Translations under genes and position numbers: made by a program
Shown: one piece after another, positions 26,198 through 46,830 of the stretch
Layout of the letters: each line of letters begins with the position of its first letter
Position numbering within the stretch: position 1 is the stretch's first letter
Notes under the pieces: model-generated
Told to the model about the DNA's origin: nothing
What the model saw: only the letters and a program-made list of their open reading frames with translations
Database searches by the model: none
Source of the DNA: Solirubrobacterales bacterium
Lineage (GTDB): Bacteria; Actinomycetota; Thermoleophilia; Solirubrobacterales; 70-9
DNA length: 64,000 nt
Direction: 5' to 3'
Assembly: GCA_036266075.1 (NCBI GenBank)
Contig: DATANV010000015.1
Coordinates: 52,686 to 116,685 of the forward strand

Positions 26198-26198
26198 C

Positions 26199-28220
26199 GT
26201 GAGCAATAGCGCCGGAAGCAGTCGGCGCCCGGCGCTGAAGAAGCCCCAGGTGGACTTCCGCGACGTCGCCCGTAGCATGGGCGGCGTCGCGGCCTCCGCC
26301 GGGCGCTGGCTCGCACGGGACCCGATCAACACGGTCCTGATCGTCGCCTCGATCGGGTTGACGATCCTCTTCTTCACCCTGCTCGGCGACATCCAGCCGA
26401 GCTCCAGCGGCACCCGGGTGCCGCTCAGTCGCGTCGAAAAGCTCGCCAAGGAAAAGCAGATCGAACTGGCGACGCTCCTCGACCAGGACTCGCGGGTCGT
26501 GGTCGACACCAAGGAAGGCCTCGAACTCTACGCCGCCTACCCGAAGTCCGATGCGGAGACCTCCAATCTTCTGAAGCAGCTGACCAGCGGCGGTGCTGTG
26601 GTCGAGATCGACCAGCAGTCCGACAAGCCGTCGAAGCAGATCATGGTCCAGTTCCTGATCCCGATCCTGCTGTTGGTCTGCCTCTTCGTGCTCTTCACCC
26701 GCCTCGGTCAGGACGCGGGAGCGGGCGCCTTCGCGGGCTTCTCGAAATTCACCGGCAAGGGCCGCAAGCGCAAGGCTGGCGCCCCCGGGCGCACGACCTT
26801 CGAAAACGTCGCCGGCGCCGGCGAAGCGGTGGCCGAGCTGCGTGAGATCCGCGACTACCTGGCCGAACCGGGCAAATACGCGAAAGTCGGCGCCCGTGCG
26901 CCGAAGGGCGTGCTGCTGGTCGGCCCCCCTGGCACCGGCAAGACGTTGCTCGCCAAGGCGACCGCCGGCGAGGCCGACGCCGCGTTCTTCTCGCTTTCCG
27001 GCTCGGACTTCGTCGAGTCGCTGGTCGGCGTCGGCGCTGCCCGCGTCCGCGACCTCTTCGCCAAAGCCCGCAAGCAGGCGCCGGCGCTGGTCTTCATCGA
27101 CGAGCTCGACGCCGCCGGGCGAAAGCGCGGCGCCGGCGTCGGCCAGGGCAACGACGAGCGCGAGCAGACGCTGAACGCGCTCCTCGTCGAGATGGACGGC
27201 TTCGGCGGCGACGCCGGCATCGTCGTCCTTGCCGCCACCAATCGCCCGGATGTCCTCGATCCGGCGCTGCTGCGCCCCGGTCGCTTCGATCGCCAGGTGA
27301 CGGTCGACGTGCCCGACGTCCACGGCCGCCTCGACATCCTCGCCTTGCACTGCGGCAACCGGCCGCTGGCGCCGGGTACCTCGCTGGAGGAGATCGCCAA
27401 GCTGACCTCGGGCTTCAGCGGTGCCGAGCTGGCCAACGTGATCAACGAGGCGGCGCTGCTGACGGTGCGCGAAGGGCGGGTCGAGATGGACCAGCCGACG
27501 CTCGAGGAGGCGATCGACCGAGTCGTTGCCGGCCCGGCCCGTAAGAGCCACGTGCTGAGCGCCGAGGAGCGCTGGGTGATCGCGATCCACGAGTCGGCGC
27601 ACGCGGTTGTCACCCGCTCGATCGGCCAGAAGGTCTCGGCCCAGAAGCTCTCGATCGTCGCCCGCGGGCGCCAGCTCGGCACCGCCGCCCACATGCTGAC
27701 CGACCGCGACGCGGTCGTTATGCAAGAGCCCGACTTGCGCCGCCACCTGATCGCGATCGTCTCCGGCTTCGCCGCCGAGCTGCTCGAGTTCGGCGTTGTC
27801 TCCAGCGGTGTCCACGACGACCTGCATGCGGCCACCGGGTTGGCGCGGCAGATGGTCACCTCCTACGGCATGTCGCCGGCACTCGGCCCGGTGACGATTG
27901 GCGAGAAAGCCGGCGAGGTTTTCCTCGGCGCCTCGCTGCAGGAGCTGGGCTCGGTCGGCCCGGCGACGCTGGAGTTGATCGACCGCGAGGTCGAGCGCCT
28001 CGTCAAGGACTCGGTCGCGCAGGCGGAGGACATCCTGCGACGCAACTGGAACGCGGTGTATGAGACCGCCAACGCACTGGTCGAGCAGGAGACGCTTTCG
28101 GGCGTCGCCCTCGACGCCGTCCTCTCGACGGTGCAGCCGACGCTGCTCTCCTTTGCCCGGGAGGAGGACGGCGAGACCGGCGAAGGCGCCGAGAGGGAGG
28201 CGCAGGCCAAGCGTGAGTAG
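26199..28220 (+). CDS. ftsH: ATP-dependent zinc metalloprotease FtsH
   Basis: Two TM segments flank a periplasmic domain. Walker A GPPGTGKT, Walker B FIDELD, SRH region, zinc site HESAHAV. The GTG start is 1 nt after the upstream stop. Confidence 0.92.
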
Positions 28221-32800: not shown

Positions 32801-34277
32801 CTTCGACAGCAGCGGCGACGGCGGCACCGTACGGATCGTCGTGATCGACAACTCGCGCGGCTCGCTGGCCGCCAGCGATCCCTTCCAGAACCCGTCCGAG
32901 GCACAGCTGCCCTGGCTCGAATCGGTGCTCGCCGATGCCCGAGCCAAGGGCATCCCGGTCGTCGTGATGGGCAACCGCAGCCTCAACTCCAGCTTCACGC
33001 CGAAGCTGAACGTGGCCAGCGACGCCGGCACTGTGGCGCGGGCACTGGTCGACGGCGGCGCCTCGGCCTACCTCTTCGATCGCCCGGAAGAGAACCGGGC
33101 GATGAGCATCCCGGCCGGTGGCTCGACGACGATCCCCAGCTGGGGCACGGGCACGCTCGGTTACCGCTCGCCGATCTCCGGCGCCGTCGGCCTCGAAGCC
33201 GCCGACTCGCTGTTCGGCGACAGCGGTTTCCTGTTGCTCGAAGTGAACGCCGCCCAGCGCGACCCCGCCAGCAACCGGGCGCCGGTAGGGGTGCGGCTGG
33301 TCCCGGTGATCCAGGACCTCTCGCTGGAAGCGATCGACGGCACCCTTCTGCACCGCTCGATCCCGGCGCTGTTCAGCGGCCTCGGCCGCCGGCCGCTCGG
33401 CGGCGACCGCTGGGGCGCCGCCGCTGCGGGCTCCTCGATCCCCAGCCCGGCCGGCGGCGACCCCTACACGCTCTTCCCGCCTGAGCCCTGCCTGGTCGCC
33501 GGCTGCGCCAACCGAGTCTCGCCGGAATACAGCTTCACCTCCTCGGATCCCGATATCGCCGACTTCGTCCGCCAGGACCCGAACTCGAACAACCTGCGCA
33601 AGCCCTTCCTCGACGCCAACGGCAAGGTCGCCACCGACAACTCCTCAGGCCTGCTCTGCCCGTTCAACGCCGGCACGACGACGGTCACCGTCAGCGCCGG
33701 CGGGCTCTCCTACTCCGAACAGGTGACTGTCCAGGGCGGCAGCGTGCAGCGCCCCTGCGGCACCCGGCCGCTGCGACCTGACCGCTTCGCGCGCAACGCG
33801 CCGGCTGCCGCGCCGCCGGCGCCCCCGCCGGCTCCCGCCCCCGCCGGCAGCCCGCCGGTCGAGTTCACGCCGCCGTCGCCTCCGCCCGCCTCGCCGGCGC
33901 CCCCGCCTCCGCCTAACCCAGTCCACGTCGTTCCGAACCCGCCCCTGGCGCCCGCCTTCTTGCCGGTCACCGCGGGCCTGATCGCCACCGTGCCGGCGGC
34001 GCTGTTGCCGCCGCCGCCGCCGGTAGTGCGGCCGCTGCCGCCAGGCGGCGCCCCGGCCCGCACCTACCAGGTCGAGGAACGCCGCGAAGAGGAGGCGGCG
34101 ACCGAGGAGTCGCAGGCCTTCTCACGGCACGAGCCCGGCGGCGAGGGCGCCGCCGTGCCGCCCTACCTGCCGGCGCTCGTCCTGCTGCTGGCACTCGGCG
34201 CCGCCTCGGTCCGCGGCGGCGGCGGCCGCCGCCGCGCGGTCGCAACAGCCAACGCTGCCTCTTTCCGTCGTCGCTGA
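29838..34277 (+). CDS. 1479-aa exported multidomain protein: propeller-like repeats, degenerate metallophosphoesterase-like domain, Big_2 Ig-like domain, Pro-rich stalk, C-terminal TM anchor
   Basis: GTGA overlap with the upstream stop. Signal peptide present. The metallophosphoesterase-like region FAVAGNAQ...LLYTGNRV...PALGSSD...HYAFD...VVIDNS...QLPWLE...VVVMGNRS has ligand positions substituted. Big_2-like SFTSSDPDIADF...NAGTTTVTVSAGG. Then PPAPPPAP... and PPYLPALVLLLALGAASVRGGGGRRR. Confidence 0.75.
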   Translation: MSGPGQAGRLIGAGLAFLLAIALALATATQGSGAAAPGGVGPLPLLGVADAQMRLMGTASGGEAWGYRQLPLAVGGVEAGTRQVPFGPPQDSSGTSLQLAFLRYTEGNGWRVFETPVDRNGNPYRGPVPNPLSARITPNGGGVLLGRDAHRLPSDQVVVLDHDPGGSWRALPTPPSSVLLPAEGERPAEALAADHGSGAVAAAAFDEGGHTGLFFAPQERSVADAVIHFDGSEWTREKVKVPAGSESEFHILAIAATGAGNAWAIAAAAPMLKRSFVLLQRTAGPEGPEWVERGIGAARFADADTPEFGIEGLAPIGGAAQPLTVTQDGVWIDLTAKFEGVSSDATVYYDIGAGAVIGSWCDADACDEAFGAKLSRQSGYRSFAWPGSGFGTRIVTNPLEPGGGEESNRGTYLRFDGGAFARVPGGGGNFHAGGAFSSVDSGWLEGPVEISAKRAPEALRPWPVTLRAPLADVTGAPGQPPGALGSQALAVGANGAVARYTPGRGWRREYLTTASGSVSKATLRGVAWPEPNHAYAVGDLGAMWQWNADDGLWIADPGVPIGFEGNLMDIAFDPADASRGYAVGKHGVLLRFEKSWEPQALPPGFDSADLTSIAFAGREAIVAAGGDLLVNEGGVWQVDPSAQALLDSVRAGNPKLLAVAGLPDGGAVAAGRDIVIERDGGPGSPWRFSKQPILGSTAIAAAAVRTDAGVRAILSVVPQLAYPPADELPPEDPNVPPPILPPFALPGDGYVLRETFDGWQDEQRTAFAGTGSDRPIKSDPTTAFLLDSAGNGWAVGGWSGDGDASGRGSSARGGEGGALRARVRTASIARFGDGAAPPPVERSAPVAVPAGPARFAVAGNAQCEQPCADLAPEALGPDRTLAVALAMINAMRGGAGPRALLYTGNRVATGLDFADGERYAALLGGVPGLPVFPALGSSDVGDGTGSDAFAASFAGFPAPLGSGASPPGISVAGIPGAAPGPGARTHYAFDSSGDGGTVRIVVIDNSRGSLAASDPFQNPSEAQLPWLESVLADARAKGIPVVVMGNRSLNSSFTPKLNVASDAGTVARALVDGGASAYLFDRPEENRAMSIPAGGSTTIPSWGTGTLGYRSPISGAVGLEAADSLFGDSGFLLLEVNAAQRDPASNRAPVGVRLVPVIQDLSLEAIDGTLLHRSIPALFSGLGRRPLGGDRWGAAAAGSSIPSPAGGDPYTLFPPEPCLVAGCANRVSPEYSFTSSDPDIADFVRQDPNSNNLRKPFLDANGKVATDNSSGLLCPFNAGTTTVTVSAGGLSYSEQVTVQGGSVQRPCGTRPLRPDRFARNAPAAAPPAPPPAPAPAGSPPVEFTPPSPPPASPAPPPPPNPVHVVPNPPLAPAFLPVTAGLIATVPAALLPPPPPVVRPLPPGGAPARTYQVEERREEEAATEESQAFSRHEPGGEGAAVPPYLPALVLLLALGAASVRGGGGRRRAVATANAASFRRR

Positions 34278-34284: not shown

Positions 34285-34740
34285 GTGAGCAAATCGCCGC
34301 GAAATCTTAGTGAGGGAGGCTTCGCGCTAGATCTGCGCTTGACCGTGCGGGCAAGGAGTACAAGAGACGTCGACATCGAGTGGCGTGCCAACGAGGCCGA
34401 GTTGCTCGATGCACTGCTCGACGCGACGAGTCACGATGCAGGCGACTTCTTCGTTTATCTCATTGAGAGGGTCGGCGCACCCGAGGACCTCCTGGGCGGC
34501 AGTCACCGCTTCCGGGTTTCGGCATCCTTGGCAGGACGTCCCTTCGAGATGTTCCTGCTCGATGTCGGCTTCCGAGCCGATGACGCGCTTGCCACCGAGA
34601 TCCTTCGCACCGAAGATCTCCTCAGCTTTGCGGGAATCGAGCCAGTCGAGGTCGACGCGATCTTGGCTGGTGATGTCCCAGCCGGGAGATGGGATTCCGA
34701 CGGCCGACGCTGGGTGCTCAGCGAATCCGCTCGGGGCTGA
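34285..34740 (+). pseudogene. Truncated AbiEii/AbiGii-family nucleotidyltransferase toxin fragment
   Basis: EGGFALDLRL...RSTRDVDIEW resembles the GGTAL...R.T.DiD motif. It is only 151 aa, lacks the usual N- and C-terminal parts, has lower GC, has no AbiEi partner, and overlaps the convergent gene's 3' end. Confidence 0.5.
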
Positions 34741-35065
34741 AGCGGTAGCCGATGCCGAAGTGGGTGTGGATGTAGCGCCAGTCGGGGGCGACGCTCTCCA
34801 GCTTGCTGCGCACGCGGCGTACGAGGACGTCCACCGAGCGGTCGCGGCGGCGCATCTCGCCGCCCCACATCAGCTCGTAGATCTCGGGCCGCTGGACGAC
34901 GCTGTCTAGACGCTCGGCGAGCAGGAAGAAGAGCTGGAACTCGCGCACGGTGAGGCCAGCGCGGCGCCCCTCGACCAGCACCTGGAGCTCCGTCGGGCGG
35001 ATCTCGACGTTGGCGATCCTCTGCCTGCCCTCGGGCGACGCCTGTGCCGATGGTGGAACGGCCAT
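34718..35065 (-). CDS. Stand-alone OmpR/PhoB-type winged-helix DNA-binding protein (no receiver domain)
   Basis: LTVREFQLFFLLAERLDSVVQRPEIYELMWGGEMRRRDRSVDVLVRRVRSKLE...IHTHFGIGYRF is a Trans_reg_C pattern. Total length is 115 aa. Confidence 0.8.
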   Translation of the reverse strand: MAVPPSAQASPEGRQRIANVEIRPTELQVLVEGRRAGLTVREFQLFFLLAERLDSVVQRPEIYELMWGGEMRRRDRSVDVLVRRVRSKLESVAPDWRYIHTHFGIGYRFSPERIR

Positions 35066-35146: not shown

Positions 35147-37165
35147 CTAATGCCGGGCGAAAATCACGGCAACGGAGCCGTGGAGCCGCTTTCCGCCTCC
35201 CGCGAAGCCGACCTTGGCCCGGGCATGGAGTTCCGTGCCGCCGGCGACCTGCGCCCGCGCCTTGCCGTGCAGGCGCAGGACCAGACGCGCTTTGCCTTTG
35301 CGCCGCGGTCGGCTCCCGTCCTGCGCCAGCTTGCGTCCCTTCTTGCGGACGGTGGCCGTGAGGCGCCCGGCACCCGGCACCGAGACGGTCAGCACCACGG
35401 TCCCGTTGGCTGCCGAGCGCGCGCGCACCGACAGGCGGCGGCGGCCGAATTCTTCGATCGAGGCCGCGCCGCCGCGGCGTGCCGACGGCGGTGGGCCTTG
35501 CGCTGGCGGTTCGCTCTCGCGGGTGACGACGAAAGCATCGGGCCGGTCGTTGGCATCGCCGACGAACATGTTGGCTGCGAAGGACGAGAAGGCGATTAGC
35601 CCGGCATCGGAGGACAGCGTCATGTGCGGGTCGACGTCGCCGTTCGCGTCGCCGTCTTCAACCGAGTGGGTGACGCGTTCGACGGTATGTTCTTCGAGGT
35701 CGATCGCGTAGAGGTCGCGGACGTCGGCGATCGAGCGCGGTTCGCCGACGAGCTGCAGGACCGGCAGGGTGAAGGTCGTGCGCACGGTGGCCAGCGCCAG
35801 GTGGCGGCCATCCGCGGTCATCGCCAGTCCCTCGATCGAGGCGGCCAGCGCCGGGCTGGTCGAGGTGCCGTCGCGGGTCAGCTCGGTGGTCGCCGCCTTG
35901 CGGCTGAGGCCGGGCTTCATGCTGGTCAGGTAGAGGTCGAGGCCCGAGCCGGTGGTCACGTCCGGGCGCGGGCCGGAGCCGGTCAGGAAGGCGACGGTAT
36001 TGCCGTCGCCGCTCAGCACCGGCAGCTGCGAGGCGATGCTGGCCGGCAGCGACTCCTGGTCGGTCAGCGGCCCGTAGCAGGGGCCCGTCGAGGTCTGGTT
36101 GAAGCTCGTCGTCATCCCCGGGTTGGCCGCTTCCATCGCCGCACAGGTCGGGTCGTCGGGGTCGGCGATGCCGGTTATGCGCCGCGTCGGCGCCCCCGGT
36201 CCCGCCGCGATGCGGCGCCAGAGGTAGTAGTCCTCGCTCGCCGAGGTCGGCTCGCCGCGCAGGAAGCGCGTCTGAGCGCTTGCGTTGTCGCCGGTCCAGG
36301 CGACCGTCGTGCCGTCGGCGCTGATCGCCCCGCCGAGCGCGCCACCCGCCGGCTGTTGGGTCATCTGGCCCGTTTCGGGGTCGCGGCTGGCGGTGACGAG
36401 CGTCGTCCGCTGGGTCGCCAGGTCGCGGACGAAGAGCTGGCCGGCGGGAACGTCGGTCGTGGCCTCGGCCGGCAGGTCGGTGGGGGCGTCGGTGCGGAAG
36501 ACGACTCGGTTCCCGTCGGCGCTGATCGCCCCGCCTCGCGCGACCTCGGCGCCCGGATTGCTCCCGGGCAGCGAGACCGTTGGAGGCCCGTAGCTCGCCG
36601 GCGCTTCGCTGCCGTCGCGCGCCGAGACGAGGCGGTACGCGCACTGGCCGCCGCCGCTGCAGGCGCCGCCAGGGGGCAGCGGCAGGTTCATGTCGCGCAC
36701 GTAGGCGTCAACGTTTTCGTTGCCGTCGGCCGGGACCAGTTGCTGGGCGGTGGAGAAGGCGACGTAGCGACCGTCGCCGCTGACCGAGGGATTCGCCGCG
36801 CCGCGCCGTAGGAAGGCGTTGGTGCCTTCTTCGAAGAGGTTGCCGTCGGCGACCTTCTGTAACGCTCGAGTCCCCAGGTCGAAGCGGAAGACTCCGCCCG
36901 CGCGGTAACGGCCGGCCGGGTCGGCGTCCTCGTCGGCGAAGAAGTTGCGCGCTCGGGTCTGGAAGACGACGTAGCGCCCGTCGGCTGAGATCGCCGCAAA
37001 GCTCGTCGCGTCATCGCCCTCTTCGAGGCGGTTGTAGTCGGCGGATACCAGGAAGGCGCCGGGAACGGCGTCGAAACCGTTGTCGTAGAAGGCCGCCGCG
37101 GTCGGCGGGGTGAGGGCGCTGAGCAGGACGGCAAGCGCCAGGCCGGCCTTGCGGCGGCGCCTCAC
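35147..37165 (-). CDS. Secreted PD40/TolB-like beta-propeller repeat protein with basic C-terminal module
   Basis: Signal peptide MRRRRKAGLALAVLLSALTPPTAAA. Repeats ISADGRYVVF, VSGDGRYVAF, ISADGNRVVF, ISADGTTVAW, LSGDGNTVAF, MTADGRHLAL. C-terminus VVLTVSVPGAGRLTATV...GKARLVLRLHGKARAQV. The GTGA start overlaps the upstream stop. Confidence 0.75.
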   Translation of the reverse strand: MRRRRKAGLALAVLLSALTPPTAAAFYDNGFDAVPGAFLVSADYNRLEEGDDATSFAAISADGRYVVFQTRARNFFADEDADPAGRYRAGGVFRFDLGTRALQKVADGNLFEEGTNAFLRRGAANPSVSGDGRYVAFSTAQQLVPADGNENVDAYVRDMNLPLPPGGACSGGGQCAYRLVSARDGSEAPASYGPPTVSLPGSNPGAEVARGGAISADGNRVVFRTDAPTDLPAEATTDVPAGQLFVRDLATQRTTLVTASRDPETGQMTQQPAGGALGGAISADGTTVAWTGDNASAQTRFLRGEPTSASEDYYLWRRIAAGPGAPTRRITGIADPDDPTCAAMEAANPGMTTSFNQTSTGPCYGPLTDQESLPASIASQLPVLSGDGNTVAFLTGSGPRPDVTTGSGLDLYLTSMKPGLSRKAATTELTRDGTSTSPALAASIEGLAMTADGRHLALATVRTTFTLPVLQLVGEPRSIADVRDLYAIDLEEHTVERVTHSVEDGDANGDVDPHMTLSSDAGLIAFSSFAANMFVGDANDRPDAFVVTRESEPPAQGPPPSARRGGAASIEEFGRRRLSVRARSAANGTVVLTVSVPGAGRLTATVRKKGRKLAQDGSRPRRKGKARLVLRLHGKARAQVAGGTELHARAKVGFAGGGKRLHGSVAVIFARH

Positions 37166-39159
37166 CCGACCCGCACCTTGCGCCTCAGCGTTGCCGTGTT
37201 GCCGGCCCGGTCTTTCGCCTTGACGACGATCGTGTAGAGGCCGGGCTTGGCGTAGGAGTGGTGGCGCGCGACCGCGTTGGGCCCTTTGGCCTTGCCCCGC
37301 CCGCGCCGCCGCGACGCGGCGGCGCGGTGTGGCGCAGACCCCGAGGCACTGGCACCGCGGTCGCCGAAGGAGATCTTCACTCCACCCCGCTTGAAGCCCG
37401 AGCTTGCGCGGCGGGCGCCGTCGAGGACCCGGATAGCGACCCGGCTGCCGCGGCGACGCAGCCGCACCCGCGGCGCCCGGCGGTCGATCAGCAAGGCCTG
37501 CTCACGGCTACCGGTTTCCTGCCTCGCGTCGTCGATCGCGAAGACCTGCAGGCGGTGCCGCCCTTCGCCGGCCTTGCCGCTGGAGAAGACGGTGTGCAGC
37601 TTCCTGGTCGGCTTGCTCACCGGCTGGTCATCGATGCTGACCGAGTACCTCAGCCCGCCGATCGCGTTGGCCGCCGCTTCCCAGGAGACTCGCAGCTCCT
37701 TCTTGCGCTGCCAGCCTTCCGGCGCTTCGACCAGCATCGGCTCGGGTGGTGCGTCGATCGTCGCCGCGGCGATCTGCGCCGCGGCACCGCTTCCTTGCTG
37801 CCAGGCGACGATCGCGTCGCCGAGGCCCGAGCCGGCCAGGGCAAGTCCGCCGACCGTGCCGCCGACCGGGGTGCTGAGCGGGGCCGATTCGCTGCGACCG
37901 TCGGCCGCGACTTCGCGCGCCGCGACGGCGCCGCTGCCACCGCGCTGCTCCTGCCAGGCGATCGCCGCGGCACCGCTCTCGGCGACGTCGAGCTGCGGTT
38001 CGCCGGCGATCGCGCTGCCGCCGTCGTCGATTCGCGCCGTCGGCCCGATCGCGGCGTTGTCGCCGCTCGTCCAGAGCGTGGCGGCGCCGCCGGCAAAAGC
38101 AGTGCCGAAGCCTCCTTCGGGGTCGACGGCGACGCTTGGAACGCCGAGGCCGCCCCGTTCGCCACCGTCGGCGAGACGCGGGCCGAGGAAGGCGGCGGCC
38201 CCTTCCGCGAAGGCGTCGGGGATCTCGTTGACGAATGCCCGCGGACCGCCGATCTTTCCCGCCTGCCCGGGGAGCTGGCGCAGCGCCACCGCCGCCTGGC
38301 CGAAGCCGGCGACGTCGAGCGAGAAGGCGTCGGCGGCGCCGCGCAAGGGGACTCCTTCCCAGCTGGATGGGCTGACCAGCAGCGGCACGCCGAAGGTCCC
38401 GCCGAAGACCCGCCGGGCCCAGACCCGGTTGACGAATTCATCGTCGGGCTCGCGCCAGGCGACGAGCGCGTTGCCGTTGACGTCGACCCCGATCTTCGGC
38501 CCGGCGGCGGCGGTCGGCACCGGCATCGGGATCGCCGGGTTGCGGTCGAGGGAATTGCCGAGGACCGACCAGAGGCGGTCTTTGTAGCGGGCGACGCGCA
38601 CGTCGATGCCCAGGTAGCCGGGGGGGTTCGCCGTGCTGTTGTCGGTGATCACCAGATAGGTCAGATACGCCTGGCCGCCGGCGTTCATCGCCAGGTCGGG
38701 GAAGCTGGCGGTCGCTTCACCGACGTTGAGGTCGACCGGAACCGGCGCCTCGAACCCGGTTGCGCCGGGGTCGAGCGTCGCCGAGAACATGCGGTCGTTG
38801 CCGGCGCCGAACTCCTGCACCCAGGTGAGGAGCAGGCGACCGCCGTCGCCGGCCGCTATCCGCGCCCAGCTCGAGTCGAATTTCTGGCCAATGTCGACCC
38901 GCTGCGGTGCGCTCCAGCCGGCGCCGAAGCGGGCGACGAAGACGTGGTTGCGGCCGCCTTCCTTGCGCAGGTAGACGAGGCCGCCGGTCCCGTCTTCTGC
39001 CATCGCCGCGTCTTCGATCGCCACCACGTCACCGCTTGGCCCGTCCACCATGTGGACCGGGGAGATCGCCGCCGCGGCACGCGATGGGGCGACGAGGCAC
39101 GCCACCACTAGCAAAGCCGTCAGGAGCGGCGGCAAGCGCAGCGGTACGCGGTCGCGCAT
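37162..39159 (-). CDS. Secreted repeat protein with C-terminal PKD-like Ig domain
   Basis: The ATG at 39159 gives MRDRVPLRLPPLLTALLVVACLVAPSRAAAA. Recurrent ...A(L/I)VAW(R/Q)E... strands. C-terminus HHSYAKPGLYTIVVKAKDRAGN (PKD signature). Confidence 0.7.
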   Translation of the reverse strand: MRDRVPLRLPPLLTALLVVACLVAPSRAAAAISPVHMVDGPSGDVVAIEDAAMAEDGTGGLVYLRKEGGRNHVFVARFGAGWSAPQRVDIGQKFDSSWARIAAGDGGRLLLTWVQEFGAGNDRMFSATLDPGATGFEAPVPVDLNVGEATASFPDLAMNAGGQAYLTYLVITDNSTANPPGYLGIDVRVARYKDRLWSVLGNSLDRNPAIPMPVPTAAAGPKIGVDVNGNALVAWREPDDEFVNRVWARRVFGGTFGVPLLVSPSSWEGVPLRGAADAFSLDVAGFGQAAVALRQLPGQAGKIGGPRAFVNEIPDAFAEGAAAFLGPRLADGGERGGLGVPSVAVDPEGGFGTAFAGGAATLWTSGDNAAIGPTARIDDGGSAIAGEPQLDVAESGAAAIAWQEQRGGSGAVAAREVAADGRSESAPLSTPVGGTVGGLALAGSGLGDAIVAWQQGSGAAAQIAAATIDAPPEPMLVEAPEGWQRKKELRVSWEAAANAIGGLRYSVSIDDQPVSKPTRKLHTVFSSGKAGEGRHRLQVFAIDDARQETGSREQALLIDRRAPRVRLRRRGSRVAIRVLDGARRASSGFKRGGVKISFGDRGASASGSAPHRAAASRRRGRGKAKGPNAVARHHSYAKPGLYTIVVKAKDRAGNTATLRRKVRVG

Positions 39160-39249: not shown

Positions 39250-39293
39250 GTTACCAGTTCTTATCCGGACAGTCACGTCGCGTTCACCTCCCT
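39250..39293 (+). promoter_or_regulatory. Four 11-nt phased PHO-box-like direct repeats in the divergent region between pstS and the 39159<-37162 operon
   Basis: GTTACCAGTTC, TTATCCGGACA, GTCACGTCGCG, TTCACCTCCCT. The last unit contains the exact GTTCACC core (39282-39288). The array ends 70 nt upstream of the pstS ATG. Confidence 0.6.
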
Positions 39294-39362: not shown

Positions 39363-40175
39363 ATGAACTTCCCACGCCCGCTGGCCGTCTTCGCGGCCCT
39401 GGCTCTCGGCGCTTCGCTGCTGGCTCCAGCCGGAGCCACCGCCAAGCCGACCATCACGATGAGCGGCTCGACCTCGGTCGCGCCGCTCGCTTCGCTGCTT
39501 GCCAAGAGGTACCTGCAGGTCTGCGGCCACTGCGTCAACTTCAAGCTGCTGCAGGGGGGCTCCGACATCGGCGTCGCCGACGCCGCCGCCGGCCGGGTGA
39601 CGATCGGCAACTCCTCGCGCGATCCGAAACCGAGCGATCCGGGCGGGCTCGTCTTCACCAAAATCGCCCGCGACGCGGTCTGCATCGTCACCAACAACGC
39701 CAACCCAGTCCCGACCATCGACCAGGCGGGAGTGCAGGCGATCTTCGGCGGCGGCATCCGCACCTGGAGCAGCGTTCCGGGGGCGACCCAGCGCGGCACG
39801 ATCGACATCTCCGTCCGCACCCCCGGCTCAGGTACCCAGGACGCCTTCCAGCGCATCTTCATGGGCACGACCAAGGTGTTCGGCGGCGCCAGCCAGAAAA
39901 CGTCGAACGGACTGGTCCAGCAGGTGGTCAAATCGGACCCTGCGGCTGTCGGCTACGTCTCGCTCTTCTTCACCCAGGGCGTGCACGCGATCCCCTACCA
40001 GGGCGTCCCCTGCACGTTGCGCAACGCCAAGTCCGGCCAGTACGGCGGCTCGCGCAACTTCTACATGGTTACCCGCGGCGCACCGAAGGGCGCAGCCAAG
40101 GCGTGGATCAGCTGGATCACGCACAACAGCGCCGCGGCATCGGTGATCGGCACGAACTGGGTACCGCTTCACTAG
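39363..40175 (+). CDS. pstS: Phosphate ABC transporter substrate-binding protein PstS
   Basis: AGGAG lies before the ATG at 39363. Signal peptide present. Motifs ITMSGSTSVAPL, GGSDIGV, RTPGSGTQDAF. Confidence 0.9.
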   Translation: MNFPRPLAVFAALALGASLLAPAGATAKPTITMSGSTSVAPLASLLAKRYLQVCGHCVNFKLLQGGSDIGVADAAAGRVTIGNSSRDPKPSDPGGLVFTKIARDAVCIVTNNANPVPTIDQAGVQAIFGGGIRTWSSVPGATQRGTIDISVRTPGSGTQDAFQRIFMGTTKVFGGASQKTSNGLVQQVVKSDPAAVGYVSLFFTQGVHAIPYQGVPCTLRNAKSGQYGGSRNFYMVTRGAPKGAAKAWISWITHNSAAASVIGTNWVPLH

Positions 40176-41173
40176 TGAGCGCGGGCGGCGCGGACGCGGG
40201 GCAGGCGGACCGCACGGACAGGCGCGCCGAGCTGATGCTCGGCGCGCTCTCCGCGGTGGTTTTGCTGCTGATCGCGTTCATGATCGTCTTCGTCTTCTCG
40301 AAGGCCTGGCCGTCCTTCTCGCACAACGGTCTCGCCTGGTTCGGCCCCGGCGGCAACGTCGACGAACAGCTGACTGCGATCTTCAACTCGCCGTCGAACC
40401 CCAGCCAGTACGTCTACGCCCTGCACGCCTGGCCGCTGCTCTACGCAACGGCGCTGATCACCGGCGCTGCCGTCTTCCTGGCGACGGCGATCTCGCTGCT
40501 CTCGGCGATGTTCATCGTCGAGTTCGCACCGGCCTGGCTGGCCGGGATCCTGCAGCCGGTCATCCGCCTGTTGGCCGCGGTCCCGTCGGTGATCTACGGC
40601 CTGATCGGCCTGCTGGTGCTGGTGCCCTTCGTCGGCAACCAGGTGATCTCCGGCGCCGAAAAGGAATCGGTGCAGTTCGTGATCCAGCTCGACGGCACCA
40701 GCGTGTTGGTCGGGGTGCTCGTCCTCACCGTGATGATCACGCCGATCATGGTCGCGATCGTCAGCGACGCGCTGCGCTCGGTTCCGCGCGGCTGGACCGA
40801 GGGCGCCGCGGCGCTCGGCGTCAACCGCTGGCGGGCATTGCGCACGGTTGGGCTGCGGGCCGCCCGCCCCGCGATCGTCGCCGCCGCGGTGCTCGCCACG
40901 GCGCGGGCGCTGGGTGAGGCGATCATGCTTTCGATGGTCTCGGGCTCGGTCGGCTTCGCGCCGAACCCGCTTGATGGCGTCACCTTCTTCTTCGAGCCGG
41001 CGCGCACCTTGGCGGCGACGATCGTCGACCACGCCGACGAGCTCTCGGTGACGCCCTCCGGCCAGACGATCTACGCCTTCGCGGCGATCCTGCTGATCTC
41101 CAGCGCCTTCCTTTCCTTCGCCGGCTGGGCGGCGCGGCGCTCGATGCGCAAATACACGCTGCAGGCGCACTAG
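40175..41173 (+). CDS. pstC: Phosphate ABC transporter permease PstC
   Basis: The GTG overlaps the pstS stop by 1 nt. Six-TM permease with an EAA-type loop (EGAAALGVNRWRAL). Confidence 0.88.
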   Translation: MSAGGADAGQADRTDRRAELMLGALSAVVLLLIAFMIVFVFSKAWPSFSHNGLAWFGPGGNVDEQLTAIFNSPSNPSQYVYALHAWPLLYATALITGAAVFLATAISLLSAMFIVEFAPAWLAGILQPVIRLLAAVPSVIYGLIGLLVLVPFVGNQVISGAEKESVQFVIQLDGTSVLVGVLVLTVMITPIMVAIVSDALRSVPRGWTEGAAALGVNRWRALRTVGLRAARPAIVAAAVLATARALGEAIMLSMVSGSVGFAPNPLDGVTFFFEPARTLAATIVDHADELSVTPSGQTIYAFAAILLISSAFLSFAGWAARRSMRKYTLQAH

Positions 41174-41175
41174 CC

Positions 41176-42144
41176 ATGAGCGCCTACGCCGAAAGGATCC
41201 GCCTCACCGGGCTCCTCGATCGCCTGCGAGGCAACGACTCATGGAGCATCGGCGACCGCGTCGGCCTGGCGCTCGCCTGGGCGGCGGGGATCCTGCTCTG
41301 CCTGATCGCCGCCGCGATTGTCCTCTACATGCTCTTCCGCGGCCTGCAGTACCTCAGCCTCGAAGACCTCTTCAGCCACCCTGAGGCCGGCCTCGGTGGG
41401 GGCAGCAGCGGCGGTTTCCTCGACGCGGTCGAGGGGACGCTGCTGGTCGCCGCCCTCGGCACCGTGCTGGCGGCGCCGCTCGGTGTCTCGATCGCCGTCT
41501 GGCTGAGCGAGTACGGCCGTCCGGGCTGGCTGGCGCGGGCCGTCGAGTCGGGGGTCGAGATCGTCGCCGGCACGCCCAGCATCGTCCTCGCGATCTTCGG
41601 CCTGTTGGTCTTCCAGCAGAGCTTCTTCGGCCTCTTCTCGCCGGTCGGCGAAGGGGCGACGCCGCTGGGTCGCTCCTTCGTGATTGCCGGGGCGATGATG
41701 TCGCTGATCGCGCTGCCGCTGGTCGTCGGCGCCACCCGCGAGGCGCTGCAGGCGATCCCGCGGCACCTGCGCGAGGCCTCCTACGCACTCGGCAAGGACC
41801 GGGCCTCGACCATCCGCCGCGTGCTGCTGCCGGCCTCGCGGCGCGGCATCGGCACCGGGATCACGCTCGGCATGGGGCGGATCGTCGGCGATACGGCGAT
41901 CGTCTTCATCCTGCTCGGGGCGACGCTGCGCTTCGAACCGAACGGCGGCGTGCCGGTCTGGGACGTGCTGACCGGCAACGGCAGCACGCTGACCACCTTC
42001 GTCTACAACAACTCGCCGGCGGGCGAAGGCGGCGCCCCGGAGAAGGCCTACGCCGCGGCCTTCGTGCTGCTGCTGATCGTCCTGGTGCTGAACTTCATCG
42101 TCGACCTGATCACCCGTGGTAGGGGGGCCTCGTGGACTCGATGA
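41176..42144 (+). CDS. pstA: Phosphate ABC transporter permease PstA
   Basis: EAA loop REASYALGKDRASTIRRVLLP. Position in the pst operon. Confidence 0.88.
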   Translation: MSAYAERIRLTGLLDRLRGNDSWSIGDRVGLALAWAAGILLCLIAAAIVLYMLFRGLQYLSLEDLFSHPEAGLGGGSSGGFLDAVEGTLLVAALGTVLAAPLGVSIAVWLSEYGRPGWLARAVESGVEIVAGTPSIVLAIFGLLVFQQSFFGLFSPVGEGATPLGRSFVIAGAMMSLIALPLVVGATREALQAIPRHLREASYALGKDRASTIRRVLLPASRRGIGTGITLGMGRIVGDTAIVFILLGATLRFEPNGGVPVWDVLTGNGSTLTTFVYNNSPAGEGGAPEKAYAAAFVLLLIVLVLNFIVDLITRGRGASWTR

Positions 42145-43037
42145 GCGTGCCGCCGCCGGTGCGGCGGATTCGCGTCGAGGAGGCGCCGACCGTCGTCCCG
42201 CCGCCCGCCGGGGGAAACGGCCATGGGCCGGCCGGGCAGCCGGCGCCGCAACTGCGCCGCATGGCCCGCGCCGAGACGGTGCCCGTCGAGCGCATGCGGA
42301 CCGAGGAGCTGAGCATCGCCTACGGCAGCAAGCTGGCCGTCGACCGGGTCTCGTTGAGCGTCCGCCAAGGTGAGGTGCTGGCCCTGATCGGGCCCTCGGG
42401 TTGCGGCAAGACGACGCTGCTGCGTTCGCTCAACCGCCTCGTCGACTTGACCCCCGGAGCGGTGCGCGGTGGCCGCATCCTGCTCGACGGCGAGGACGTC
42501 GACCTCTACGACGCGACCTTTCTGCGGCGTCGCGTCGGGATGCTCTTCCAGCAGCCGAACCCCTTCCCGATGAGCATCTTCGACAACGTCGCCTACGGCC
42601 TGCGCGAGCGCGGCTCGAAGAAGCCGGCAAAGCGCGAGCTGGAGCCGGCGGTGAGTGAGGCTCTGCACCGCGCCGGCCTCTTCGAGGAGGTCAAGGACAA
42701 CCTCGACCACCCGGCGCTGGCGCTCTCGGGTGGCCAGCAGCAGCGCCTCTGCATCGCCCGCTCGCTGGCCGTGCGCCCGGAGGTACTACTGCTCGACGAG
42801 CCCTGCTCGGCGCTCGACCCGATCTCGACCCAGACGATCGAGGAGACGATCGTCGCGCTGCGCAGCGAGATCGCGATCGTGATCGTCACCCACAACCTGC
42901 AGCAGGCCCAGCGGGTCGCCGACCACGTCGCCTTCATGTACCTGGGCGAGATGGTCGAGTACGGCGAGGCGGCGCAGGTCTTCAGCTCGCCGGTCGTCGA
43001 GCGCACCCGCGAGTACGTCAGCGGGGGCTTCGGATGA
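42141..43037 (+). CDS. pstB: Phosphate ABC transporter ATP-binding protein PstB
   Basis: ATGA overlap with pstA. GPSGCGKTT, LSGGQQQRLCIAR, LLLDEPCSALDP. An alternative GTG start lies at 42132. Confidence 0.92.
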   Translation: MSVPPPVRRIRVEEAPTVVPPPAGGNGHGPAGQPAPQLRRMARAETVPVERMRTEELSIAYGSKLAVDRVSLSVRQGEVLALIGPSGCGKTTLLRSLNRLVDLTPGAVRGGRILLDGEDVDLYDATFLRRRVGMLFQQPNPFPMSIFDNVAYGLRERGSKKPAKRELEPAVSEALHRAGLFEEVKDNLDHPALALSGGQQQRLCIARSLAVRPEVLLLDEPCSALDPISTQTIEETIVALRSEIAIVIVTHNLQQAQRVADHVAFMYLGEMVEYGEAAQVFSSPVVERTREYVSGGFG

Positions 43038-43786
43038 CCGCCCAGCTGCTCGCCGCCGCCGGCCTCGCCGCGCTGGCGCTCGGCCTCAGCGCCTGTCAGT
43101 CGACCCAGGACAAGAGCGCCGAGCTCGAAAAGGAGGGCGCCGGCACCCTGATCGCCGAAAAGGGCCTCGAGATCAAGAAGCGGAACCCCGACGTCGAAGT
43201 CGTCTTCAAGGCCCTGCTCGGCAACGCCGAAGGCAACGCGGTCGTCGTCGCAGTGCACAACGACTCCGACGCCGACCTGGTCGACGTGCCGATCCTGATC
43301 GACGTGCGCGATGCCAAGGGCAAGACCGTCTACAGCAACGACATCCCCGGCATCGAGCCGGCGCTTGCCTCGATCTCCTTCATCCCCGCCAACGGCAACG
43401 CCGAATGGGTAGACGACCAGGTCTTCACCACTGGCAAGCCGAAGTCGGTCGACGTGAAGGTCGGCGCCGGCGGCTCGACCTTCCGCGGCGAGATGCCTGC
43501 CATCGAGGTCTCGCAGCCGCACCTGGAAGGCGATCCGGTGTCGGGGATCTCGGCCACCGGCACGGTCGTCAACCGCACCGGCAGCGATCAGGGGCGGCTG
43601 CTGCTCTACGTGGTCGCCCGGCGCGGCGACGAGGTCGTCGCCGCCGGTCGTGGCGCGATCGAACACCTGAAGCCCGAGACTAAAGCGCTGAAATACACCG
43701 TCTTCTTCATCGGCGACCCGAGCGGAGCCGAGCTAAAGCTGACCGAGCTGCCGACGCTCTCCGGGTCGGAGGGGGGCCCGGGATGA
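43034..43786 (+). CDS. Lipoprotein of unknown function (two beta-sandwich-like halves)
   Basis: ATGA overlap with the pstB stop. Lipobox LGLSAC. Confidence 0.7.
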   Translation: MTAQLLAAAGLAALALGLSACQSTQDKSAELEKEGAGTLIAEKGLEIKKRNPDVEVVFKALLGNAEGNAVVVAVHNDSDADLVDVPILIDVRDAKGKTVYSNDIPGIEPALASISFIPANGNAEWVDDQVFTTGKPKSVDVKVGAGGSTFRGEMPAIEVSQPHLEGDPVSGISATGTVVNRTGSDQGRLLLYVVARRGDEVVAAGRGAIEHLKPETKALKYTVFFIGDPSGAELKLTELPTLSGSEGGPG

Positions 43787-44532
43787 CGGAGACTCCGATC
43801 TCGGCGACGCCAGGCCAGACGCAATCTCGGCCCGCTCTGGAGCTGCCTGCCGACCGTGGCCAGCACGGCGAGCCCTGCCAGGAGTGCGGCGCGCCGCTCG
43901 CCGCCGACCAGCGCTACTGCCTCAACTGCGGCCGGCGCCGGGGCGGGGCCCGCGTCGACTATCGCCACTACATGGCGACGGCGGCCGACGCAGGCGAAGC
44001 CGAAGAGCAGGCCTCCCCTCGCTCGGGCCCACTCCCCCCTCAGACAACATCGCCGTCGCAGCCAGCGGCCGACGGGGACGAACCGCAGCGCGACTACGCG
44101 CCACTCGCCGCGGTCGGCGGGATCGCGGTGCTGGGCTTGATGCTGCTTGTCGGCGTCCTGATCGGCAGGGGGGGCGACAGCTCCACCCCGGCGCCGGCGC
44201 CGATTGTCGTTCACGGGAGCGGTGAAGGGGCGGAAGCGTCCACCGCCAAAGAGGGCGGAGCGGGCGCCGGAAAGTCGCCTGCAACGGTGGCCCCGGAGCC
44301 CGGTGGCAAGCAGAAGGGCGGCAGCCTGGCCGGGAGCGGCTCGGCGAAGAGCGAGGAACCGGTCGAAGCCAGCGACGAAGCGCTCGAATCGCTGCACTCC
44401 CAGAGTGGCGCCAGCTACGAGGAACAGAGCAAGAAGCTGCCCAACGAAATCGCCACGCCAGGCAAGCCGCCGCCGATCGACAAGACCACGGCTCCCGGCG
44501 GGGGCGAAGGCGGAGGGGAAGTGATCAAGTGA
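43783..44532 (+). CDS. Zinc-ribbon membrane protein (N-terminal CxxC..CxxC, one TM, low-complexity exterior)
   Basis: ATGA overlap. CQECGAPLAADQRYCLNCG. TM segment LAAVGGIAVLGLMLLVGVLIG. Confidence 0.7.
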   Translation: MTETPISATPGQTQSRPALELPADRGQHGEPCQECGAPLAADQRYCLNCGRRRGGARVDYRHYMATAADAGEAEEQASPRSGPLPPQTTSPSQPAADGDEPQRDYAPLAAVGGIAVLGLMLLVGVLIGRGGDSSTPAPAPIVVHGSGEGAEASTAKEGGAGAGKSPATVAPEPGGKQKGGSLAGSGSAKSEEPVEASDEALESLHSQSGASYEEQSKKLPNEIATPGKPPPIDKTTAPGGGEGGGEVIK

Positions 44533-44858
44533 GCAGCGACCTCGAGAGGCGCCGCGACCGGCTCGCGCGCGAGCTGGTCGACCTGCAGTGGGATCTTGGC
44601 GGCATCGCCTACGAGATGGCGATCCGCGATCACTTCCGGCTCGACGTGCTGACCCGCCGGGCGGCGAAGCTGCAGCAGGTCGAGGCCGAGCTGAGCGAGG
44701 TCGAGCGGATGCTGAGGCTCGACCAGGCCGGCGCCGCCGGCGCCTGCGGCAACTGCGGCGCGCTCTACGCCCAGGGTGCGGCCTTCTGCTGGCAGTGCGG
44801 CAAGGACCTGATGCCGAGTGCCGCTGCTGCCCTGGGTGCGACGGCGGTCGGCCCGTGA
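44529..44858 (+). CDS. Coiled-coil protein with C-terminal zinc ribbon
   Basis: GTGA overlap. Contains CGNCGALYAQGAAFCWQCG. Confidence 0.65.
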   Translation: MSSDLERRRDRLARELVDLQWDLGGIAYEMAIRDHFRLDVLTRRAAKLQQVEAELSEVERMLRLDQAGAAGACGNCGALYAQGAAFCWQCGKDLMPSAAAALGATAVGP

Positions 44859-46039
44859 AGCGGCTGCTGCGCCGGGGACCGGCGGCCGACCGACTGATCC
44901 GCTGGGCGGCGCTGCCGATCACCAACCGCCGTTGGGCGGCGCCGCTCTCCGCCGTCGCACTCGGCTTCGGGCTCTTCATCGGCGTCGCCATCGGGCCGGG
45001 TGCCTCCGGCACCTTCGCCGGCGCCAGGCAGGTGATCGAAATCCCCGATCTCGGCGGCGAGGGTGAAGCGGAAGCCGGCGAAACGCGCGCGGGCGGCCCG
45101 TCTCCCGCTGGTGGCTCGGCGCTCGGCGCCACCGGCGGCGAAGCCGCGCCCTTCCCGGAAGCCGCACCCCTCGCGGAAGAACCGCTACCGACTTTGACCC
45201 CAGTGGAGGGGGGTCAAAGTCGGTCGGGCGCGCCGGCATCCGCCGACGAAGGCGATGCACCCGCCGAGCCAGAGTCCCAGGATGGCGAGTCGGAAGAGCC
45301 GCTGCTCGGCGGCACGGTCGTCCACGTCAACCCCGCCGCCGGCAGCTACACGGTCGCCGAAGAAGGCGGCGTGATGAGCGCCGTCCACGCCGGCAAGCGG
45401 CCGGCGCTGGGGACACAGGTGGAAGTGCCGATCCGCACGCTCGCGAACGGCACTCTGGTCGAGGCTGGCAAGCGCAAGGCGACCGGCGACGCCGACACGG
45501 TCAGCCTCGCGGGGATCGTCACCTTTGTCGACCCCAACCCTGCCGCACCGGCCTACGCGCTGTCGAATCGTGGCACCTCGCCCTTGATCCGCGTCCATCC
45601 CGACCCGAACGGCGTCCCGGTAGCGTTGCCGGCACTCGGCGCCTACGCGACGGTCAGCGCCGAAATCGAAAAGCCGCAGCCGGGTGCCTCCGTCGGCGGG
45701 CTCTGGCAGAGCAGCCTCAGCACCGGCGGCGCGCCCTTTACCCACGCCGACCTGGCGGGGATCGTCGCCGCGATCCACCCCGAAACCGCCCAGCTGGCGA
45801 TCTCCGCCGACGACGTCCGCGCCGACGGCCAGGACCTGCTGCTCGCCGTGCCGCCGACGATCGACGTCTCGAGGGTCGCGGTCGGCGAATCGGTCCTGGC
45901 AGGTGCCGACATCGGTCCCGGCGGCTCGCTCGTCCTGACTGGCTTGGCCAGCGACGAGCACGCCAAGGGCGCCGACGACGAAGCCCCAATCCAGGGCGAT
46001 CTGGTTCCCGCCAAAGTCAACGAAGGAGCGTCCCGATGA
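44855..46039 (+). CDS. Membrane-anchored exported protein of unknown function
   Basis: GTGA overlap. N-terminal TM segment WAAPLSAVALGFGLFIGVAIG. Acidic linker followed by a beta-rich domain. Confidence 0.65.
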   Translation: MKRLLRRGPAADRLIRWAALPITNRRWAAPLSAVALGFGLFIGVAIGPGASGTFAGARQVIEIPDLGGEGEAEAGETRAGGPSPAGGSALGATGGEAAPFPEAAPLAEEPLPTLTPVEGGQSRSGAPASADEGDAPAEPESQDGESEEPLLGGTVVHVNPAAGSYTVAEEGGVMSAVHAGKRPALGTQVEVPIRTLANGTLVEAGKRKATGDADTVSLAGIVTFVDPNPAAPAYALSNRGTSPLIRVHPDPNGVPVALPALGAYATVSAEIEKPQPGASVGGLWQSSLSTGGAPFTHADLAGIVAAIHPETAQLAISADDVRADGQDLLLAVPPTIDVSRVAVGESVLAGADIGPGGSLVLTGLASDEHAKGADDEAPIQGDLVPAKVNEGASR

Positions 46040-46830
46040 GCTCGATGCCGATCTTCACCTCGACGCGGCGCCCGGACCCGGTTCCGCGGCTGCTCTCCGC
46101 CGCCGCGCTGCTCGTCTCGCTGCTGGCGCTGGTCTTCTCGATGGGCGGCGCCGCGCCGGCCAAGAAGGGCGGGGGAGGGGGTGCGCTGGTGCGCCTCGAC
46201 AAGCACGGCAAGATCCCGGCGCGTTACCTGCCGGCAGTCAAGTTCGCGAAGCAGTCCAAGCGGCTCGGCAACGCGACCAAGAAGGACCTGACGGTCAACT
46301 GCCCGATCCCCGATGCGGTCGACCTCGGCACCTGGTGCTTGGAATCCGGCCTCAACCCGGTCCCACCCAAAGACACCGGCAAGAACGACTTCGTCTACGC
46401 GGCGCAGAAATGCGTCCGCGAAGGCGGCTGGCTGCCGACCGCGGCGCAGCTGATCGGCGCCGCGCCGAAGGTCAAGCTGCAGAGCAAGATCGACGACAGC
46501 CCGCTGACCTCCGGCGTCGACGAATTCGCCACCCCGAAAAACGGGATCAAGGACGCCCGCGAGATGAGCGGCGACCTGACGACGACCACCGCCGGCGGTC
46601 GCGCCGCCGGCTCGGAGGGGGTCACGGTCGGCTCCAAAGGGAACGGCAACCTCGGCGAGCCCGACCCGGTGCCGATGCCTGCCGACCCACTGCCCGACAC
46701 GCTCAACTACATCACCGTCTACGACAACTACAACCACGGCGGCTTTGCCGGCGGCGCCCCGGTGGGCGCGCCGGAGAAGTTCCGCTGCGCCTACGCCAAG
46801 GGCTCTCAGGGAACCAAGTTCGGCGACTGA
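46036..46830 (+). CDS. Membrane-anchored protein with DUF1566/Lcl-C-terminal-like domain
   Basis: ATGA overlap. TM segment LLSAAALLVSLLALVFSMGG. YAAQKCVREGGWLPTAAQLIGA and a terminal FRCAY resemble the DUF1566 pattern (tentative). Confidence 0.6.
   Translation: MSSMPIFTSTRRPDPVPRLLSAAALLVSLLALVFSMGGAAPAKKGGGGGALVRLDKHGKIPARYLPAVKFAKQSKRLGNATKKDLTVNCPIPDAVDLGTWCLESGLNPVPPKDTGKNDFVYAAQKCVREGGWLPTAAQLIGAAPKVKLQSKIDDSPLTSGVDEFATPKNGIKDAREMSGDLTTTTAGGRAAGSEGVTVGSKGNGNLGEPDPVPMPADPLPDTLNYITVYDNYNHGGFAGGAPVGAPEKFRCAYAKGSQGTKFGD

Follow-up and report, generated by a model that had tools for sequence, protein, structure and literature searches.

Phosphate importer operons of the pstSCAB type may carry phoU behind pstB, as in Escherichia coli (pstSCAB-phoU). 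Pst operons without phoU are ordinary as well: Bacillus subtilis has no phoU at all, and in Streptomyces the gene is linked to the phoR-phoP operon (PMC4415409). PHO boxes consist of 11-nucleotide (nt) direct-repeat units, with the core GTTCACC in S. coelicolor, and removal of the receiver leaves a PhoB effector domain whose DNA binding is constitutive (PMC4415409). We studied a 64,000-nt stretch of DNA (hereafter the window; contig DATANV010000015.1, positions 52,686 to 116,685, 70% G+C) from a member of the Solirubrobacterales, in which pstS, pstC, pstA and pstB are followed on the same strand by five further genes, named here g1 to g5. Solirubrobacterales are abundant in soil, where phosphate acquisition is a central process, and have hardly been studied; a literature search on their pst biology gave nothing specific. 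A preliminary description, made from the sequence letters, had presented g1-g5 as envelope genes standing in place of phoU and their products as one membrane-associated complex.

The nine genes form an operon, pstS-pstC-pstA-pstB-g1-g2-g3-g4-g5, with g1-g5 at positions 43034-46830, and the overlapping five-gene extension is real and more than a product of chance. The reading that we favour, with a probability of about 0.55, is that of a pst operon fronted by a PHO-box-like operator and extended by a fixed lipoprotein (g1), a portable trio (g2-g3-g4) and the terminal gene of an envelope-protein cluster (g5), the whole lying in a phosphate-starvation island, where g1 would be an accessory subunit of the transporter and g2 to g5 a scaffold. 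Its chief interest lies in the pairing of g1 with an anchor-less PstS and in a receiver-less PhoB-type regulator. The comparison set comprised about 165 related loci (numbered with the prefix L): 80 from a g5-profile scan of one genome per species, 80 more from a g3-profile scan of metagenomes, and single homologues looked up in addition to both.

Pfam and NCBIfam searches identified the open reading frames (ORFs) at 39363-43037 as pstS, pstC, pstA and pstB and confirmed the order S-C-A-B. PstB (335.2 bits with TIGR00972, cutoff 343.2), PstC (194.2 bits with TIGR02138, cutoff 196.45) and PstA (193.1 bits with TIGR00974, cutoff 193.45) each had the Pst model as best match and fell just short of its cutoff; PstS reached 135 bits with TIGR02136, well under the cutoff of 206.6. 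A proline/glycine-rich extension of about 50 amino acids (aa) precedes the ATP-binding cassette (ABC) domain of PstB (window 42141-42300), and the match to the PstB model begins at residue 55.

The five junctions after pstB are 4-nt start/stop overlaps (ATGA at 43034 and 43783, GTGA at 44529 and 44855, ATGA at 46036), exactly where the preliminary description had put them, and g5 stops at 46830. Starting most likely at the ATG at 42141, pstB also overlaps pstA by 4 nt, which brings the run to six consecutive junctions from pstA to g5. Such an overlap was readable in 8 of the 30 same-strand gene pairs of the window; six of these make up the run and the remaining two, among the other 24 pairs, sit in the neighbouring cluster of large proteins. 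Third-position GC of g1-g5 was 0.82-0.92, a signature missing from the opposite-strand ORFs; an independent gene caller run on the source contig called the five genes identically, and homologues of g1, g4 and g5 number in the hundreds each. The overlaps were kept in relatives at pstB/g1 (26 of 29 loci), g2/g3 (25 of 29), g3/g4 (27 of 29) and g4/g5 (10 of 29). A scan of 38.8-47.4 kilobases (kb) revealed no promoter-like site, and terminator-like sites were not above chance, so nothing beyond chance separates pstB from the five genes. An Rfam search found no RNA family in the pst leader. Since an MMPL gene (46806-48974, negative strand) converges on g5, the operon ends there. Co-production of g1-g5 with Pst, proposed in the preliminary description, is a well supported prediction from the overlaps without intergenic space, the absence of internal signals, the coupling kept in relatives and the operator upstream of pstS.

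Table 1. Features of the window considered in this work (aa, amino acids; TM, transmembrane segment; Ig, immunoglobulin; AF2, AlphaFold2).
Feature	Position	Strand	Basis
PstS-like-domain protein (629 aa), FtsH-like protease (673 aa), fam5 (~530 aa) and fam4 (1479 aa), a cluster	24308..34277	+	Pfam; synteny
Second PHO-box-like site, GTAACCGTTCT / GTCACCAAACG / GCAACG	24158..24185	+	three-unit pattern
Stand-alone OmpR/PhoB-type winged-helix protein, 115 aa, candidate operator binder	34718..35065	-	PF00486, E 7e-19, residues 34-109
Two large secreted proteins, fam3 (PD40 repeats) and fam1 (C-terminal Ig/PKD-like domain)	35147..39159	-	domain searches; synteny
PHO-box-like operator, four direct repeats with 11-nt period, GTTACCAGTTC / TTATCCGGACA / GTCACGTCGCG / TTCACC	39250..39292	+	conserved block
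pstS (PstS1 type)	39363..40175	+	PF12849, E 4.8e-28; signal-peptidase-I type signal, no lipobox
pstC, permease	40103..41173	+	TIGR02138; identical gene call on source contig
pstA, permease	41176..42144	+	TIGR00974
pstB, ATPase	42141..43037	+	TIGR00972, E 2e-100; gene call on source contig
g1, predicted lipoprotein with two Ig-like beta-sandwich domains	43034..43786	+	lipobox LSAC; AF2 model; pstB synteny
g2, predicted cytoplasmic zinc ribbon, one TM (residues 104-132), disordered ectodomain	43783..44532	+	Pfam Zn_Ribbon_1, E 3e-5
g3, small cytoplasmic helical protein with predicted C-terminal four-cysteine zinc ribbon	44529..44858	+	no TM; alignments
g4, single-pass membrane protein	44855..46039	+	TM 27-52; alignment A5
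g5, single-pass membrane protein	46036..46830	+	TM 15-43; alignments A1 and A3; synteny

The lipobox of g1 (LGLSAC) ends in a cysteine, C21, that was at least 90% conserved in 125 diverse homologues (29-55% identical). An AlphaFold2 (AF2) model built from a deep alignment had a predicted local distance difference test score (pLDDT) of 92 and showed a short helix followed by the two beta-sandwich domains. The family comprises 590 clusters at 50% identity in an exhaustive profile search. It matched no Pfam or NCBIfam family, a Pfam scan of the 125 homologues gave no consistent family, and sequence and profile searches of the PDB with g1, g3, g4 and g5 returned nothing significant. Foldseek gave generic tandem beta-sandwich matches only (transglutaminase C-terminal barrels, WxLIP and RbmA), with TM-scores of about 0.2. 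The position of the gene is the most telling: pstB lies directly upstream of g1 in 50 of the 52 loci with enough flank, including g1 copies that are only 33-39% identical, and the 4-nt overlap is found also in distant copies such as those of L086 and L087. In the Solirubrobacteraceae pstSCAB-g1 is kept and g2-g4 are absent from it.

The PstS encoded in this operon has a signal that ends in PAGATAK, without a cysteine, and the corresponding pattern PAxAxAK was free of a lipobox in all 35 related loci compared. The canonical PstS2 of the same genomes carried a lipobox in 6 loci, and g1 is absent from the PstS2 operon. Binding proteins of Gram-positive bacteria normally carry a lipid anchor. As a lipoprotein that is always made together with an anchor-less PstS, g1 is therefore a plausible lipid-anchored dock for it; this is a correlation, and we propose the role tentatively, with the odds somewhat against it. 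Solirubrobacter is described as staining Gram-positive (PMC10722151).

The three genes that follow encode a predicted cytoplasmic zinc ribbon on a membrane anchor, a small soluble protein and a second membrane protein. The best zinc-ribbon match of g2 lies just under the Zn_Ribbon_1 cutoff; with profile PF13240 the cutoff is 25 bits, of which g2 reached 24.1 and g3 21.1, all four cysteines being invariant in the alignments. The ectodomain of g2 is of low complexity and has a conserved C-terminal motif, LPxxIATPGxPPPIDK; distant copies of the gene occur in L086 and L087. The best conserved of the five proteins is g3, at about 80% identity within the clade and 57-59% where g1 is at about 33%, and it has at least 371 metagenomic relatives. 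In g4 a near-invariant N-terminal and transmembrane (TM) segment is joined by an acidic linker, which varies, to an ectodomain of some 240 aa, which is conserved; the protein has 657 homologues, yet no match in Pfam, NCBIfam or the PDB. The TM and juxtamembrane segments are the most conserved parts of both g2 and g4. Of the features given for these proteins in the preliminary description, the LSAC lipobox of g1, the single TM of g2 and the TM anchor of g4 were borne out, and the zinc ribbons of g2 and of the end of g3 have invariant cysteines with profile scores just short of the cutoff.

Contexts of g3 were compared in the 29 loci that were informative, that is, with at least 2.6 kb of upstream sequence. 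It stood after pstB-g1 in 18 of them, after g5 in three, after g1 alone in one and after neither in seven; g2-g3-g4 occurred without pst in 10. Outside pst contexts, too, the gene after g3 encodes a g4-like protein with the same N-terminal TM motif, a linker and an ectodomain, and the trio is therefore portable. Four trios (L107, L125, L129 and L150) had no pst gene within 8 kb, and two more loci (L145 and L164) presented the order fam5-fam4-g5-g2-g3-g4-like, which gives some evidence that g5 and the trio may work together independently of Pst. Several copies outside the operon nevertheless adjoined another pst operon (L135, L143, L144, L156, L161 and L139).

The last gene has a further, separate history. 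The ectodomain of g5 is highly conserved, with four invariant cysteines and the motif GGWLPxAAQLIGAA; the protein has 1246 homologues and matched no family of Pfam or NCBIfam. A TM anchor had been proposed for it and stands; the DUF1566-like domain proposed along with it was rejected, as not one match came from 49 family members even at E<=10 and the query alone gave no match at E<=0.1. Most g5 paralogues lie away from pst. In dozens of loci, over most of the order, g5 is the last gene of a same-strand cluster, either fam1-fam3-fam5-fam4-g5 or, in the Conexibacter type, PstS-like/FtsH-like/fam5/fam4/g5; for about 40 g5-paralogue loci our view ended at fam1, at the edge of the 10-kb flank. L061, L062, L066 and L077 have the Conexibacter-type order followed by g5, and their fam5 and fam4 are 50-55% identical to those of the window. 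The window itself holds a Conexibacter-type cluster (24308-34277) plus an inverted fam3/fam1 pair; here g5 has been moved away from the cluster and stands last in the pst operon. Fam3 and fam1 are transcribed divergently from pstS and share the intergenic region with it. The 1479-aa fam4 protein matched a BNR/Ycf48-like propeller; a degenerate metallophosphoesterase domain that had been suspected in it by eye found no Pfam match even at E<=1.

The only variable junction of the extension is g4/g5: outside the 10 loci with the 4-nt overlap, the genes are separated by a gap of 55-112 nt, or by 520-680 nt with an extra gene. This extra gene, of about 170 aa (family 40), lies between g4 and g5 in L012, L016, L025, L028 and L084 and has no recorded Pfam match. 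In L033 and L036 g5 is found upstream of pstS and outside the operon. One relative, L085, presents dnaX-ybaB-recR-GGDEF-MerR-pstSCAB-g1-g2-g3-g4 and then a convergent MMPL gene, which is the same chromosomal site as that of the window, and has at this site neither g5 nor the large cluster. The order dnaX-ybaB-recR-GGDEF-MerR is common to window 19569-24016 and L085 1-3635. In L085 this block abuts pstS directly, which suggests that the 15-kb large cluster was inserted at the site (or, where absent, deleted from it). In the loci compared, the five extra genes fall into three evolutionary modules (g1; g2-g3-g4; g5) that were joined over time, and this sub-clade is the only one in which the pst operon has taken up g5 as its last gene. 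As a whole the five-gene block does not always follow pstB in relatives: g1 nearly always does, and g2-g4 and g5 occur elsewhere too.

The operator lies about 70-110 nt upstream of the pstS start and is made of GTTCAC-type repeats, of which the last unit contains GTTCACC, the S. coelicolor core. The 40-nt block was kept in 23 relatives while its flanks varied. A degenerate three-unit pattern had three matches in the window, against 0.03 expected, and these fell in the pstS block and in one other place, about 125-150 nt upstream of the gene for the 629-aa PstS-like protein, the first of the large cluster. In Solirubrobacteraceae pstS and the FtsH-like gene are divergent, and the region between the two is filled with GTTCACA-N4-CGTCACA repeats. 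The operator lends indirect support to phosphate as the presumed substrate and to a predicted induction by phosphate limitation. A second conserved element, TGTGACCAAGGAGATACCAAGTGGTTA at 39193-39219, was noted in the fam1-pstS intergenic region; it recurs in about ten relatives as GTAACTAGGGCGCTACCAGGTGGTTAAGC and may form part of the promoter that drives the divergent fam1 operon.

The candidate binder of these sites is the 115-aa winged-helix protein, the only OmpR/PhoB-type protein nearby. A search for a receiver domain in its gene found only Trans_reg_C (residues 34-109 of 115), in a reading frame of at most 143 codons, and the 199-aa homologue in L081 has no receiver domain either. Homologues of the gene adjoin pst in every arrangement seen, and in L023 one lies directly upstream of pstS2CAB-phoU. 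Pfam scans found no histidine kinase in the window, and no PhoR-PhoP pair was seen there. The winged-helix protein may act as a Pho regulator independently of a phosphorelay.

Three other observations concern the surroundings. About 50 nt past the MerR-family gene (23168-24016) there is a perfect 20-nt inverted repeat at 24067-24119 (GGGACGCGCCGGTAGTTAAC ... GTTAACTACCGGCGCGTCCC) with a 13-nt spacer, which could be an operator or, though it has no T-tract, a terminator hairpin. Positions 7800-11040 have a G+C of 0.62 and no ORFs with the codon signature of the genome, and adjoin a tRNA gene (10845-10916, negative strand); this stretch may be an integrated element. The signal recognition particle (SRP) RNA is encoded at 13497-13761.

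Neither a PhoU (PF01895) nor a PhoU_div (PF01865) domain was found by Pfam in any called gene of the window, g1-g5 included, and tblastn with both found nothing in the window, with PhoU in L023 and PhoU_div in L076-L082 as positive controls. The statement that the window has no PhoU-like ORF was accurate. That g1-g5 stand in place of phoU found no support: L023, a close relative, carries g1-g5 plus a second, canonical pst operon with PhoU directly after pstB, PhoU_div adjoins pstSCAB-g1 in the Solirubrobacteraceae L076 and L079-L082 (PF01865, E 6e-19), and phoU-less pst operons are commonplace. Since a PhoU-type gene accompanies g1 in these relatives, and the whole of g1-g5 in L023, PhoU and the extra genes are not mutually exclusive. 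The second operon of L023 occupies 10311-14767, about 4 kb downstream of g5, with a winged-helix-only gene, a lipobox-bearing PstS2, pstC, pstA, pstB and phoU; in the window an MMPL gene and ask-asd hold that position.

These results bear on several explanations of the extension. According to the preliminary description, all five proteins would form one membrane complex, stoichiometric with Pst, that takes over the signalling of a missing PhoU to the Pho regulator. The unbroken overlaps from pstA to g5 and the lack of PhoU in the window fit such a complex, as do a small, highly conserved, cytoplasmic g3 that could touch PstB and a Pho-type regulator nearby that, without a receiver domain, needs some other input. 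We nevertheless consider it improbable, since the five genes have three separate histories (g1 tracks pstB, g2-g3-g4 occur also without pst, and g5 usually ends another cluster), g4/g5 are coupled in just 10 of 29 relatives, PhoU or PhoU_div co-occurs with g1-g5 or g1 in relatives, and none of the five proteins matches PhoU; moreover, the absence of PhoU is that of a 64-kb window in a genome of about 3 Mb, from which absence genome-wide does not follow. The signalling might instead reside in the trio, with g2-g3-g4 as a TM sensor whose zinc ribbons sequester or release the winged-helix protein, a non-phosphorelay substitute for PhoR plus PhoU. The receiver-less regulator, the want of a histidine kinase in the window, the conserved cytoplasmic zinc ribbons of g2 and g3 and the strong conservation of the TM and juxtamembrane parts of g2 and g4 would agree with this. 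The evidence is, however, purely architectural: the trio is found also in loci with no winged-helix gene or pst nearby, the Solirubrobacteraceae have the winged-helix gene and operator-like repeats with no g2-g4 nearby, and Pfam and NCBIfam detected no known anti-sigma or anti-activator motif. We regard a sensor of this kind as very doubtful.

A different possibility is that only g1 is tied to Pst, and that g2-g3-g4 and g5 are an autonomous envelope module (e.g., for wall or surface-layer organisation) with no phosphate role, placed behind pstB-g1 because operon fusion is cheap in a compact high-GC lineage. The trios away from pst or behind fam5-fam4-g5, the g5 paralogues that mostly lie away from pst and the pstSCAB-g1 operons of Solirubrobacteraceae without g2-g4 all speak for it. 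Against it, the attachment by 4-nt overlap behind pstB-g1 persists from 33% to 100% g1 identity, pstB-g1 is the majority context (18 of 29 loci), several copies outside the operon adjoin another pst operon, and in the large cluster of g5 the first protein is PstS-like and a PHO-box-like site is present; mere hitch-hiking is a possibility that we take seriously and still find rather unlikely. At the other extreme, g1-g4 could all be new dedicated Pst subunits, g1 docking PstS and the trio reporting to the receiver-less regulator without a PhoR-type phosphorelay, so that Pst would be tied to a starvation envelope machine of the PstS-like protein, the FtsH-like protease, the beta-propeller proteins and g5. 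As a joint claim this is unlikely.

The reading that we favour, the phosphate-starvation island with a Pst accessory lipoprotein, takes a middle course. Positions 24.1-46.8 kb (23 kb) would be a Pho-type co-regulated phosphate-starvation island; the PHO-box-like sites would serve to switch it on, and the receiver-less winged-helix protein of PhoB type encoded nearby is the probable activator. The roles that we infer for all five genes are as follows: g1 would be an extracytoplasmic accessory subunit of a Pst variant, most plausibly the dock described above; g2-g4 with g5 would form a membrane-spanning scaffold that links cytoplasmic zinc ribbons to wall-spanning ectodomains and works with the neighbouring large envelope proteins; and g1-g5 would accompany PhoU-type regulation rather than replace PhoU. 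Several points weigh against this. The operator and its regulator were assigned by pattern and position alone, and the site at 24158 is known from this window alone, as no relative locus reaches that region. The tether role of g1 combines a correlation, the anchor being missing from PstS and present in g1, with an assumed single membrane, and the PstS signal peptide could stay uncleaved and serve as the anchor instead; two g1 loci, L032 (a frameshift-ridden assembly) and L112, have no detectable pstB upstream, and the Foldseek matches of g1 gave no functional lead. The trio occurs without pst in about a third of the informative loci, and its job therefore need not concern phosphate. In Pfam and NCBIfam searches g2-g5 carried no recognisable functional domain, and the AF2 model of g5, from a 49-sequence alignment, was unusable (pLDDT 43.6).

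If it is true that the anchor-less PstS requires g1, importers that depend on a binding protein would have a new design in this Gram-positive lineage. Taken together, the conserved PHO-box-like operator and the receiver-less protein of PhoB type suggest a Pho control that dispenses with the two-component switch of the textbooks. Five sizeable unannotated protein families were defined (g1, ~590 clusters; g4, 657 homologues; g5, 1246; g3, more than 371) and placed in a 23-kb candidate phosphate-starvation island, which offers concrete targets for annotators and experimenters.

Among described systems, the pst operons of B. subtilis and Streptomyces resemble the present one in having no phoU within them, and the operator found here agrees with the S. 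coelicolor PHO box in its core, GTTCAC(C), and in the 11-nt period of its repeats (PMC4415409). Their operons end at pstB, whereas here five genes follow, and in place of a PhoR-PhoP pair there is only the 115-aa receiver-less effector domain. With E. coli pstSCAB-phoU the locus shares the importer order S-C-A-B, PHO boxes of 11-nt direct repeats ahead of it (PHO-box-like here) and extra genes after pstB, here predicted to be co-transcribed. In this case, however, pstB is followed by the lipoprotein g1 and four membrane or zinc-ribbon genes and not by the cytoplasmic helical-bundle PhoU, none of g1-g5 matches PF01895, and PstS has no lipid anchor although the lineage is Gram-positive.

In mycobacterial mce operons, Mam/Mas, OmamA and LucA proteins stabilise or assemble the transporter. 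These too are actinobacterial ABC importer operons extended by co-transcribed single-pass membrane proteins and lipoproteins; they have no sequence relationship with the present genes, the substrate class and transporter type differ, and the proteins here are of zinc-ribbon and Ig-like kinds. The DUF1566/Lcl C-terminal domain (PF07603) resembles g5 in the short motif GGWLP-x-AAQL after a cysteine and in extracytoplasmic location, but the g5 family gives neither a match to its profile nor a PDB sequence match. PhoU_div/DUF47 (PF01865) has no member in the window and no homology to g1-g5; in the Solirubrobacteraceae it adjoins pstSCAB-g1, so that the order does possess a PhoU-type partner.

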